64,000 nt of DNA, from the NCBI GenBank assembly GCA_964434575.1, contig CAYSWB010000007.1, positions 4,702 through 68,701 on the forward strand, written 5' to 3'. Positions 57,613 to 62,453 of the stretch are shown piece after piece (positions within the stretch are counted from its first letter, which is position 1; each line of letters starts with the position of its first letter). The notes under the pieces are model-generated. The model saw nothing but the letters and a program-made list of their open reading frames with translations, was not told the origin of the DNA and did no database searches. This DNA is from an uncultured Candidatus Peribacteria bacterium (GTDB lineage: Bacteria > Patescibacteriota > Gracilibacteria > Peribacterales > Peribacteraceae). The translations under genes and the position numbers were made by a program.

Positions 57613-57915
57613 ATGACTCTCGACGATTTCATTGCCCGCGCGAAAACTTGGACGCTGTTTCCCGCCGATATTTTGGAGGCGGCCGTGAACGACGCGTTTT
57701 TCCTAGTCTTTGACGAGCGCGCCGTGCTTGCCGCAAAGCTCGACAGCATCCATACGGCATGCCGGCGAATCGATGCCGAACGCTTCCGGCGCTTCGCGGC
57801 GGCCGAGCAAGCGTTGGACGACATCCGCCGCGCGACGCTCCCCGTCGTCTATGCGGCGGTCGAACAGAGCGAGAGGGACCAGGCGTTGGACGACATCACC
57901 AAGCAATTCGAATGA
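57613..57915 (+). CDS. small helical protein (100 aa) translationally coupled to the 1513-aa gene
   Basis: ATG start at 57613. Its TGA overlaps the next ATG as ATGA (57912-57915). Composition is helical. Confidence 0.6.
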   Translation: MTLDDFIARAKTWTLFPADILEAAVNDAFFLVFDERAVLAAKLDSIHTACRRIDAERFRRFAAAEQALDDIRRATLPVVYAAVEQSERDQALDDITKQFE

Positions 57916-60900: not shown

Positions 60901-62453
60901 GCGAACTGAATCAGCTGGAAGCGGAATTGGCGCGCCGCGGCTTGCCGCTGCCCGTGGCCAAGCCCGCACCCGTGCCAAAGGTGCAGGTCCGGCGCAATAA
61001 CCTCCCAGACAAGATTTACGAAGGACCGCCGCGTCCCATCCGCCCAGCCGACCTGCCGAAGGCGTCGGACGCACAGATTTCGAACCGCTACACCCTGTTG
61101 CAGCAAGGCAAGGCCGTGAACCCACAGCCGGGAGAATTGGCGCAGCTGGAAGCCGAGTTCGCGCGCCGCGGCCTGGCGATCCCGATCGTAAAAAACCCCG
61201 TGGTCAAAGTGAACAACCTGCCGGACGTGTATCCGAAACCGGCGCCGAAAACCCCGCGCGTGAAGCGCAACGACTTGCCGGACAAGTATCCGACGCCAAC
61301 ACCAAGGCCTACTACCCCGCGTCCCCAGCCCAAGCCGACGGGGAAGGTTGAGCCTCTGATTCCATTCAAGGACCCAAAGGCGAAACCAACAGGAAAGGTT
61401 GAGCCGCTGGTTGGATTTAAGGATCCAAAGCCCAAACCAACCGCTCAGCCGGAACCGCTGCCCATGGATCAGTTCGGAAAGGGCGCCGGGAAGCCCAACG
61501 CAAAGCCGACTGCAGAGCCTGAGCCGCTGGTTGGATTTAAGGATCCAAAGCCCAAACCAACCGCTCAGCCGGAGCCGCTGCCCATGGATCAGTTCGGAAA
61601 GGGCGCCGGGAAGCCCAACGCAAAGCCGAACCCTACTCCGAAACCCGCACCTGGTCCCAAGCCGCAACCCAAACCGAAGCCCGAACCGAAACCGGAGCCA
61701 AAGCCAGCTCCTGAACCCACGCCCACCCCGAGGCCGACGCCCAACGAGCCCATCCCGGTGAACGGCATCGACAAGGTGGATGACGCCCTGCTTGTGCAGC
61801 GCTACAACGCGCTGCAGTCAGGCAAGGCCACGAATGCCCAGCCGGGTGAACTGGCGGCTATGGAGCGCGAGCTGACGAACCGCATGGGCCTGCTCTATCG
61901 GTCGGAATCCGAAGTCAAAAACCTGGGCGCTTCGATCGGAAAGAACATCAACGCGAACGGGAACAATACGCCGTACCAGCAGCTGCGCCTCAAGGCGGTG
62001 AAAGACGAGGTGGCCCGCCGTGCCGCCGGCGGCACGCAGCAACCGCGTCCGGGCGCTTCCAAGGGGCCCAGCAAGCCCGTCACGACCGAAGCGGAAGACG
62101 CCGTCCGCCGCGCCGCCGAAAAGAACCTGGCCAAAGCCACGCCATCCCGCCTGAAGGCGCAATACAATCAAATCGATTCGGCGATCGAAAATGAAATCGT
62201 CGCGCTGGAACGCGCCGGACTGAAGCAAACCGCTGCCGCCCTGCGCTCCGGCAAAGGCGATGAAGCGGTGAGTATCGTCGCGAAAGAATTGCAAACCCTG
62301 CCCAAGCTGAAAGGGAAAGACGGTCTTGAGTTCGTCCGCAACGTCTACGATGTCCGGGCGCTGCAGCGCCAGCGCGACCTCATCGTCAACGAGTTCAAGC
62401 GCCGCAAGATCGCGCTGCCGGCAGTACGGCCGCCAAAGCCGAACCCCGCCTGA
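57912..62453 (+). CDS. giant repeat protein (1513 aa): charged N-region, beta-rich modules, coiled coil, central hydrophobic/Gly-rich segment, Pro/Lys-rich repeats and helical QPGELA modules
   Basis: Uninterrupted ORF. The start is set at the ATG at 57912 (ATGA overlap). The longer track ORF from 57759 overlaps the small gene in another frame. Confidence 0.8.
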   Translation: MTLFSEHRLLHLAGGEGPSGDVERKEKAVKSASASEPVEPGREGFEKDTKEVGAMLLKADPTGKKVEKPLKELTATREKVLKEDDNLQKEKKVEIEGARKVVDESRPRSAERPTIPADASVLPEDVNIRDSRLNGYQLRTIGGVIIAAKPGNPQIFSVEPGIGATVTLTELVGNTKQRFAILLTFVGNQRLVDGASLPGAETAYNYGRRGDSLIRYAKNGAETLVVNPQFDDNWRPLYQQVVEMQENVGSSALQQGGYRQEGDGTWKKAGSPWQFRADGTGRWLVRNGTGPLMPVETTNVAPEDPELGVFQNLGAALRITNEGVQARLNSDNAQSIKREGAVQILKLGAKPYDGEGGGWEYSTGFSVNVNPQFQFVGGRWAVRWFTSEAWSDPGSRRAASGGGEEAINNILSYLAGLNERIGRGVPLTFARPPEQRPVTVAPLVPKAQQEAAAQPDPTEGMTEEQKDAYKESIIKQFVEKEQQTGVAAEAYDKSKNTKDLLSVISSMQGELEFLRQNSKLMDKEAPAAKTAFERLLQRRTQTLEAALKQLEPVVRDLAQRSEAGIRRARAKIMEVIGRERQQIINAYEQRAAGGTFGSLKTGLTGSDPYALLITDAEMTISRMNLSLDRLNKADAEPEGLAKLRAVQSALSSIAIANRSDAAFYQEVFAIEQEAITVTRDVTIAVITTVVPIGAGAVFSGLKTTAAVANTANAAKTPLLVVFRQGAVEGATLAAPGAVGKGVDDVQRGAKTVKQAIVDGTIEVGVGAGLGGGLKTGFTAGGRGISALRGNKPAPGVEPVPGGAPEPIPVVKPKVGPDGIPFVKPKPIGADGIPVVKPKPIGTDGIPVVRPKPKIGPDGIPIVKPKPATSAPKATPEPPAPKPTTRLVGKADLPKVTVNQLNKRYTEIVSGTAKNVQKNELATLRAEFARRGIAPPTVKSGPVQVNPLPDAIGPTPATNLLPAAGRPLRDTTLRTATDARVIARYQALVGRRAAPRPGELNQLEAELARRGLPLPVAKPAPVPKVQVRRNNLPDKIYEGPPRPIRPADLPKASDAQISNRYTLLQQGKAVNPQPGELAQLEAEFARRGLAIPIVKNPVVKVNNLPDVYPKPAPKTPRVKRNDLPDKYPTPTPRPTTPRPQPKPTGKVEPLIPFKDPKAKPTGKVEPLVGFKDPKPKPTAQPEPLPMDQFGKGAGKPNAKPTAEPEPLVGFKDPKPKPTAQPEPLPMDQFGKGAGKPNAKPNPTPKPAPGPKPQPKPKPEPKPEPKPAPEPTPTPRPTPNEPIPVNGIDKVDDALLVQRYNALQSGKATNAQPGELAAMERELTNRMGLLYRSESEVKNLGASIGKNINANGNNTPYQQLRLKAVKDEVARRAAGGTQQPRPGASKGPSKPVTTEAEDAVRRAAEKNLAKATPSRLKAQYNQIDSAIENEIVALERAGLKQTAAALRSGKGDEAVSIVAKELQTLPKLKGKDGLEFVRNVYDVRALQRQRDLIVNEFKRRKIALPAVRPPKPNPA
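60342..60509 (+). repeat. in-frame 39-nt (13-aa) tandem repeats G(P/A/T)DGIP(F/V/I)VKPKPI, x4
   Basis: KVGPDGIPFVKPKPIGADGIPVVKPKPIGTDGIPVVRPKPKIGPDGIPIVKPKP. Confidence 0.8.
61401..61629 (+). repeat. near-perfect 120-nt-period tandem duplication inside the 1513-aa gene
   Basis: 61401-61509 and 61521-61629 are identical except for one base (61453 A versus 61573 G). Each copy encodes EPLVGFKDPKPKPTAQPEPLPMDQFGKGAGKPNAKP. Confidence 0.9.

Follow-up and report, generated by a model that had tools for sequence, protein, structure and literature searches.

What does a very large protein do whose C-terminal half strings a repeated helical module on Pro/Lys-rich sequence, and on which side of the membrane does it act? 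The question is raised by P0001, a protein of 1513 amino acids (aa) encoded in a stretch of 64,000 nucleotides (nt), here called the window, from an uncultured Candidatus Peribacteria bacterium of the family Peribacteraceae (GenBank assembly GCA_964434575.1, contig CAYSWB010000007.1, positions 4,702 to 68,701 of the forward strand). The source genome amounts to 1.54 Mb in 53 contigs. Bacteria of the Candidate Phyla Radiation (CPR) are believed to lead their lives attached to, or in company with, other cells, and almost no large lineage-specific protein of theirs has a known role. An initial annotation, made by a model from the DNA letters and a list of open reading frames (ORFs), had suggested that P0001 may project helical modules outward from the membrane on a wall-spanning stalk. 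We report that P0001, as judged by sequence comparison, is no isolated orphan but belongs to an unnamed family seen so far only in Peribacteraceae-like genomes, in which differing C-terminal domains are exchanged on a shared tether. We tentatively propose, at a probability of about 0.4, that P0001 is a membrane-held, cytoplasm-facing, flexible and multivalent docking platform. A literature search on P0001 and its parts returned nothing specific except PMC4736985.

A fast-evolving scaffold family in Peribacteraceae

A search for relatives matched aa 499-815 of P0001, the region that contains the scaffold core (Table 1). The core consists of a helical bundle with the motif G-x-FG...T-x-S-D-P-Y, a hydrophobic segment, the motif D-(D/E)-V-x-S-G-x-K-T (V-D-D-V-Q-x-G-x-K-T in P0001) and a Gly-rich stretch. 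Residues T35, P39 and Y40 are invariant across 14 aligned scaffold sequences. The scaffold profile scored 314 bits on P0001, its sole match in the source genome, and was found in 20 of 200 genomes of the same family (the source genome included) and in none of four congeners. Scanned against Pfam, the 14 scaffold segments gave scattered single matches only, and the scaffold profile had no match among PDB sequences. In an AlphaFold2 (AF2) model, the bundle (aa 570-670) reached a predicted local distance difference test score (pLDDT) of 75-93, and the remaining hydrophobic and Gly-rich part 30-45; VIA-align of this model retrieved generic helical bundles only, with Z below 10.

Similarity is also found outside the core. 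Domains 35-45% identical to the N-terminal Trp-rich domain occur in three genomes (G073, G129 and G134), and a fourth (G140) matches it over 75 residues. The full-length homolog in G073, a different genus, is P0010; employing BLASTP, we found 33% identity over aa 113-774 of P0001 (E = 2e-108) and a second match between aa 1409-1498 of P0001 and aa 1131-1224 of P0010 (E = 3e-4). In G073, the C-terminal helical domain precedes the modules, and the shared elements stand in a different order than in P0001. P0001 showed all four hallmarks of the family: the SDPY bundle, the segment with the Gly-rich stretch, an N-terminal E-x-R-L-L peptide, and a basic tether with a variable C-terminus. The scaffold family is fast-evolving.

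Exchange of C-terminal domains on a shared tether

After the core, every family member carries a basic Pro-rich or Gly-rich tether followed by a differing C-terminal domain. At least four relatives have a Pfam DnaJ J domain on the equivalent tether (57.7, 63.1, 30.9 and 38.0 bits, above the gathering score), other relatives have J-like C-terminal ends without HPD, and one has a calpain-like protease domain (20.3 bits, below the Pfam cutoff). Further relatives end in repeated beta-type domains or in unrelated helical repeats; the three helical repeats of one of them (G010) showed no profile relation to the module of P0001 (E = 0.59). A GspF-like C-terminus, noticed by eye in one relative, was not confirmed by Pfam. 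In P0001, the slot taken by the J domain in relatives is occupied by an array of helical hairpins, and the part open to exchange runs to about 800 residues, which are strongly basic and for the most part non-globular. Domains are swapped on a shared tether in this family.

A rare, predicted alpha-hairpin module in four copies

The C-terminal half of P0001 is rich in repeats. Within aa 815-866 (nt ~60354-60509), inspection of the sequence and Tandem Repeats Finder (TRF) bore out the 13-aa repeats of the initial annotation as four GxDGIPxV(K/R)PKP(I) units; a fifth, degenerate unit immediately precedes them (TRF: 60329-60466, period 39 nt, 3.6 copies, score 136). The helical module, previously put at four copies or more, was found in exactly four, all in P0001, by alignment, shuffling and a six-frame profile search of the genome. 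The copies are 43-54% identical to copy 3 and share the invariant residues R16, Y17, G23, E32, L33, E39 and R43; pairwise Smith-Waterman comparisons among them gave 6-26 standard deviations over 1000 shuffles. Further look-alikes at aa ~1402-1434 and 1491-1505 were below significance with the profile, and the supported number of modules is therefore four. Because the motif V-x-V-(N)-N-L-P-D-x-Y-P follows each of modules 1-3, the real unit measures about 76-80 aa. Between modules 3 and 4 lies the KP/EP-rich tract that had been placed at aa ~1130-1280; it contains 33% Pro, 15% Lys and five EPL-type motifs, EPL(V/I)(G/P)FKDPKPKP. Inside this tract there is an in-frame tandem duplication of 120 nt (99% identical, 61400-61629).

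Based on an alignment of seven module copies, AF2 predicted a short N-terminal turn, a helix at positions 14-26, a 9-residue loop and a second helix at positions 36-47, with pLDDT of ~88, followed by a tail (R-G-L-x-I-P...N-L-P-D) with pLDDT of ~61. The module is thus confidently predicted to fold as an alpha-hairpin in which about 35 residues are ordered, carried on a flexible string. Compared with the PDB by Foldseek, the model gave a best E of 1.5, for ribosomal L29-type hairpins; the lack of a meaningful match is to be expected because the fold is so small. Feature searches of the ESM Atlas with module 3 and with the N-terminal domain gave no usable match.

Neither P0001 as a whole nor its pieces matched Pfam, NCBIfam or PHROGs, which, together with the comparison of folds, agrees with the earlier view that the module lies outside named families. 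With a profile made from the four copies, a search of 1.84 billion representative proteins returned five proteins at E <= 0.001. Besides P0001 itself, these were P0008, a 140-aa fragment on a 1.3-kb metagenome contig with two module copies (E = 7e-4); P0009, with a half-module match restricted to the second helix, E-L-A-x-I-x-A-E-L-A-R-R-G (E = 7.5e-4); and P0006 and P0007, which were rejected as module carriers because they are repeat artefacts covering only part of the profile. When 5.8 billion proteins were searched by word index with a wider alignment (A4), which included the modules of G073, only P0001, the G073 homolog and P0008 came up. The two strongly diverged copies of the G073 homolog were seen by eye only; they were not significant with the narrow profile and were recovered only through their inclusion in A4. 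Among the 200 genomes of the family, the module profile found nothing better than E = 0.005, and recurrent weak matches in ORFs of ~880 aa were traced to the ClpB coiled coil and hence to chance. A tblastn search of a phage collection gave no match. As far as these searches tell, the module is extremely rare.

P0009, 911 aa long, is encoded among the structural genes of an uncultured podophage (L075:8001-10736), with an SU10-type adaptor nearby. Its N-terminus has two copies of E-L-A-x-I-x-A-E-L-A-R-R-G and then a Gly-rich hydrophobic stretch, a layout that loosely parallels the second helix of the module and the Gly-rich segment of the scaffold family.

Probable membrane association and orientation

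Hydropathy and sequence revealed no hydrophobic signal or signal peptide at the N-terminus of P0001. The central segment reaches a Kyte-Doolittle maximum of 1.97 over 19 residues, and its flanks carry a net charge of -3 on the N-terminal side and +3 on the C-terminal side. Of 13 family members compared, 12 have a net charge of -1 to -3 over the 25 residues that precede the segment, and all have 0 to +4 over the 25 that follow it; the C-terminal parts of all 13 have isoelectric points (pI) of 9.3-10.5. For P0001 as a whole, the N-terminal half has a net charge of -4 and the C-terminal half (810 residues) of +58, with a pI of 10.2. According to the positive-inside rule, such a strongly basic half is unfavourable for export, and a J domain requires Hsp70 and ATP, i.e. 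a cytoplasm. Taken together, the J-domain relatives, the charge asymmetry and the net charge of +58 make it most likely that the tether and the C-terminal domain lie in a cytoplasm, be it that of the producer or of another cell.

The J domains and the positive-inside charge also argue against a TonB-like wall-spanning stalk. Of the initial interpretation of the Pro/Lys tracts, the part that holds is that they are extended flexible spacers between folded modules, in agreement with their composition and with the pLDDT of the module tail; the TonB-like, wall-spanning part is not supported. Likewise, an outward projection of the modules is at odds with the central position of the segment, the J-domain relatives, the flanking charges and the basic C-terminal half.

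We propose that the central hydrophobic segment would hold P0001 at the cytoplasmic membrane, and that the C-terminal string would extend into the cytoplasm and serve there for flexible, multivalent docking. With four hairpins of one kind and two sorts of repeated linear motif, it could bind several copies of the same partner, or a number of different ones, close to the membrane. In the relatives, the tether would likewise carry a J domain, which would recruit DnaK, or else a protease. What the analyses show are the intact gene, the arrangement of its repeats, the prediction of the hairpin, the rarity of the module, the membership in the family, the swapping of domains and the asymmetry of charge; that the protein inserts into the membrane, which way it faces, that it docks partners and what these would be is inferred.

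Several points weigh against the docking platform. In many relatives, the segment is only moderately or weakly hydrophobic (Kyte-Doolittle maximum 1.1-1.6) and, given also the low pLDDT of this part of the scaffold, membrane insertion itself is inferred. The argument from J domains fits the cytoplasm of a target cell as well as that of the producer. Peribacteria have large, strain-variable proteins, several of them predicted to be extracellular (PMC4736985). For pairs of module copies, the ratio of nonsynonymous to synonymous substitution rates (dN/dS) came to 0.3-1.1, but with dS saturated it is uninformative about selection on the module as a whole.

Pro-rich spacers are common in wall-spanning proteins, and P0001 could alternatively be a surface stalk: the central segment would be a signal-anchor, the Pro/Lys region would span the wall, and the modules would stand outside for attachment to a partner or host. 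The predicted extracellular proteins of Peribacteria (PMC4736985) favour such an arrangement, as does the ongoing repeat turnover shown by the 120-nt duplication, and anionic polymers of the wall would be possible ligands of so basic a domain. We nevertheless consider it unlikely, since J domains occupy the equivalent position in relatives, the charge next to the segment and in the C-terminal half disfavours export of that side, and neither a signal peptide nor a TonB_C domain was found in P0001.

A shared N-terminal peptide and a coupled small gene

In 10 aligned N-termini of the family, E6 and R8 are invariant and L9 is nearly so. The N-termini follow the pattern ...(F/S)-x-E-x-R-L-(L/I)...G, often after M-x-H-T-H. 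Because it has no hydrophobic core, the peptide does not qualify as a Sec or Tat signal. It is also present on four other proteins of the source genome (1280, 520, 452 and 451 aa; C18:3621-7460, C29:6071-7630, C10:21052-22407 and C21:5351-6703; loci L092-L095), all without a scaffold match. Altogether, the peptide stands at the start of five or more proteins of the source genome that otherwise differ, and of many large proteins in related genomes. We placed the start of P0001 at 57912 and not at the upstream ATG 57759, because the family-conserved peptide then falls at the N-terminus.

The ATG at 57912 is overlapped by the TGA of the upstream gene P0011 (ATGA). P0011 encodes a small acidic helical protein (Table 1) with homologs in eight other genomes of the family; at all six of the P0011-type loci inspected (L084-L087, L089 and L091), the gene lies directly upstream of a large protein with the E-x-R-L-L peptide. 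A complex prediction for P0011 and the N-terminal 80 residues of P0001 scored 0.00, a value that counts neither for nor against binding.

In G135, the large protein downstream of the P0011-type gene has a calpain-like active-site motif. A second conserved small protein (~110-150 aa, G-x-E-I-Y-D-x-I-M-x-x-I-E-P-E-L) is encoded upstream of or near scaffold genes in eight loci (L054, L056, L058-L061, L063 and L072), most of them with J-domain ends; in three of the eight, the large gene is apparently split into two overlapping ORFs.

These findings bear on another alternative, an exported polymorphic effector, for which the E-x-R-L-L peptide would be an export or targeting signal and P0011 a chaperone or adaptor; the segment would insert in a target membrane and the C-terminal domains would act in the cytoplasm of another cell. 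Such a role is suggested by the occurrence of the peptide on otherwise different proteins (including the four scaffold-less ones of the source genome), by P0011-type genes directly upstream of peptide-bearing proteins in six other genomes, by the swapped C-terminal domains, and by the patchy distribution of the scaffold among genomes of the family and its absence from the four congeners. However, no secretion machinery is linked to the locus, P0001 is followed by rpsR and rpsF on the opposite strand rather than by an immunity-like gene, and the hairpin array is unlike any toxin or enzyme. We therefore regard an effector, too, as unlikely. A more specific version, which we hold to be distinctly doubtful, is that the E-x-R-L-L peptide and the P0011-type protein mark an undescribed targeting or export route of Peribacteraceae for large polymorphic proteins, with P0001 as a substrate; inside a partner cell, its hairpins and linear motifs would form a multivalent platform for hijacking.

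Possible binding to polyanions and origin of the hairpin

It is very improbable that the Lys/Pro-rich half is a tether that binds DNA, RNA or acidic lipids in the manner of histone H1 or AlgP, linking the nucleoid or ribonucleoprotein to the membrane with the hairpins as helix-extension-helix-like contacts: its charge, pI and KP-rich repeats would suit such binding, and the geometry of the hairpin (helix, extended 9-residue loop, helix) resembles the SAP/HeH layout, but the modules themselves are nearly neutral with two acidic residues among the invariant ones, Pfam, read up to E = 10, listed neither SAP nor HeH nor Rho_N, and the only DNA-binding domains retrieved by Foldseek, lac-repressor-type headpieces, stood at E = 2.5 or worse and are not meaningful.

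The origin of the module is a separate question. It could be a relic of a J domain (helix II, loop and helix III) that lost HPD and was then multiplied. In a single comparison, hhalign placed module positions 6-31 on positions 11-36 of the family J domain in the register of helix II (E = 0.014), a score reached by 3 of 200 column shuffles, and relatives have J or J-like C-termini. With the wider module alignment, however, E was 0.14 and 17 of 200 shuffles reached the score; moreover, Pfam DnaJ did not match the modules, HPD is absent, and helix III remained unaligned. A descent from J domains is accordingly a long shot.

Gene integrity and neighbourhood

The P0001 frame comprises 1513 codons with zero internal stops. 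Its GC content by codon position (0.67/0.48/0.78) matches the pattern of YebC and of the neighbouring giant gene. The initial annotation had allowed that the ORF might prove disrupted in read-level data; contigs of independent runs carry it without indels. In the freshwater source sample (2018), contigs of three runs cover the ORF with zero differing letters and zero indels. Metagenome runs from a wetland (2024) and from groundwater (2024) contain near-identical pieces of window positions 57500-62600, modules 1-3 among them, with 0-5 differences per contig. The ORF is no assembly artefact where contigs cover the sequence. Logan contigs break within the 120-nt duplication, whose junction is spanned by one 70-nt contig only; because short-read contigs break there, copy number may vary from strain to strain. 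Among the listed sequencing runs that carry DNA of the P0001 locus, none is of RNA.

Table 1. Features of P0001 and adjacent genes in window coordinates
Feature	Residues	Window positions	Strand	Basis or remark
P0002, divergently transcribed giant	2640 aa	48534..56456	-	context only
P0011, small acidic helical protein, pI 4.7	100 aa	57613..57915	+	TGA overlaps P0001 ATG
P0001 ORF	1513 aa	57912..62453	+	translation, codon GC, independent contigs without indels
Conserved N-terminal peptide (M-T-L-F-S-E-H-R-L-L-..-G-G)	aa 1-18	57912..57965	+	
N-terminal Trp-rich domain, acidic	aa 113-430	58248..59201	+	relatives' domains; no Pfam match
Scaffold core	aa 570-790	59619..60281	+	alignments A3, A6; profile
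Membrane-grade hydrophobic segment	aa 679-703	59946..60020	+	only one in P0001
Four 13-aa GxDGIPxVKPKP repeats		60342..60509	+	TRF and sequence inspection
Alpha-hairpin module 1 (predicted)	aa 888-937	60573..60722	+	
Alpha-hairpin module 2 (predicted)	aa 968-1016	60813..60959	+	
Alpha-hairpin module 3 (predicted)	aa 1044-1093	61041..61190	+	copy modelled with AF2
Pro/Lys/Glu-rich tract	aa 1126-1281	61287..61754	+	EPLxGFKDPKPKP motifs, 120-nt duplication inside
Alpha-hairpin module 4 (predicted)	aa 1282-1328	61755..61895	+	
C-terminal helical domain	aa 1405-1503	62124..62420	+	BLASTP to G073 homolog

Since rpsR and rpsF, downstream of P0001, are on the opposite strand, P0001 closes its transcription unit. 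On the minus strand, 62511-63341 and 63426-63998 hold rpsR/rpsF and a gene with a weak HTTM-domain match, convergent to P0001; the locus is therefore set in housekeeping DNA with no obvious mobile element. The head-to-head pairing of a P0001-like gene and small gene with a P0002-like giant is kept in G073 (G073:C1:683600-700200). BLASTP of P0001 against P0002 gave nothing significant.

Comparison with known systems

The family provides handles on a large lineage-specific protein of a CPR bacterium: it is defined by sequence and has a shared N-terminal peptide, a membrane-association core, exchangeable domains of which some, such as the J domain and the calpain-like protease, have known biochemistry, and an extremely rare hairpin. 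Should the tether face the cytoplasm, the family members would serve as recruitment platforms localised at the membrane; should the proteins be exported, a new route for effectors of CPR bacteria would be indicated. The domain swapping and the N-terminal peptide are the more interesting leads in this lineage-restricted family.

In the same lineage, Candidatus Peribacter riflensis has very large proteins that vary by short in-frame insertions and deletions, and its Cys-rich large proteins mostly have signal peptides (PMC4736985). P0001 is likewise very large but has no Cys and no signal peptide.

P0001 resembles TonB in alternating Pro with Lys or Glu in a low-complexity, extended spacer on a membrane-associated protein. 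TonB, however, is anchored at its N-terminus and ends in a TonB_C domain, with a spacer of ~70 residues in between, whereas P0001 has a central segment, several hundred spacer residues alternating with hairpins, no TonB_C match in Pfam and probably the opposite orientation.

The module is similar to SAP, HeH and LEM domains in size (~35-45 residues), in its two helices with an extended loop, and in a second helix that ends E-L-x-x-R-G-L-like. It differs from them in having no Pfam match (SAP PF02037 included), in a distance from E-L to R-G-L that is one helical turn longer, and in not being basic; R-G-L closes the module of P0001 rather than leading into a second helix.

Polymorphic toxins (LXG/type VII secretion system (T7SS), CdiA and Rhs) likewise combine a conserved targeting or scaffold part with swapped C-termini and tightly coupled small genes. 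In contrast to them, P0001 has no LXG, Rhs, CdiA or recognisable toxin domain in Pfam or NCBIfam and no immunity-like gene next to it.

In J proteins anchored in the membrane and in tethers of the cytoplasm, such as DjlA, ZipA and the linkers of FtsK, a membrane segment is followed by a flexible Pro- or Gln-rich linker and a cytoplasmic interaction domain, an arrangement comparable to that proposed for P0001. P0001 differs from these proteins in that it lacks a J domain, its anchor follows ~680 N-terminal residues, and its putative interaction domain is a repeated orphan hairpin.

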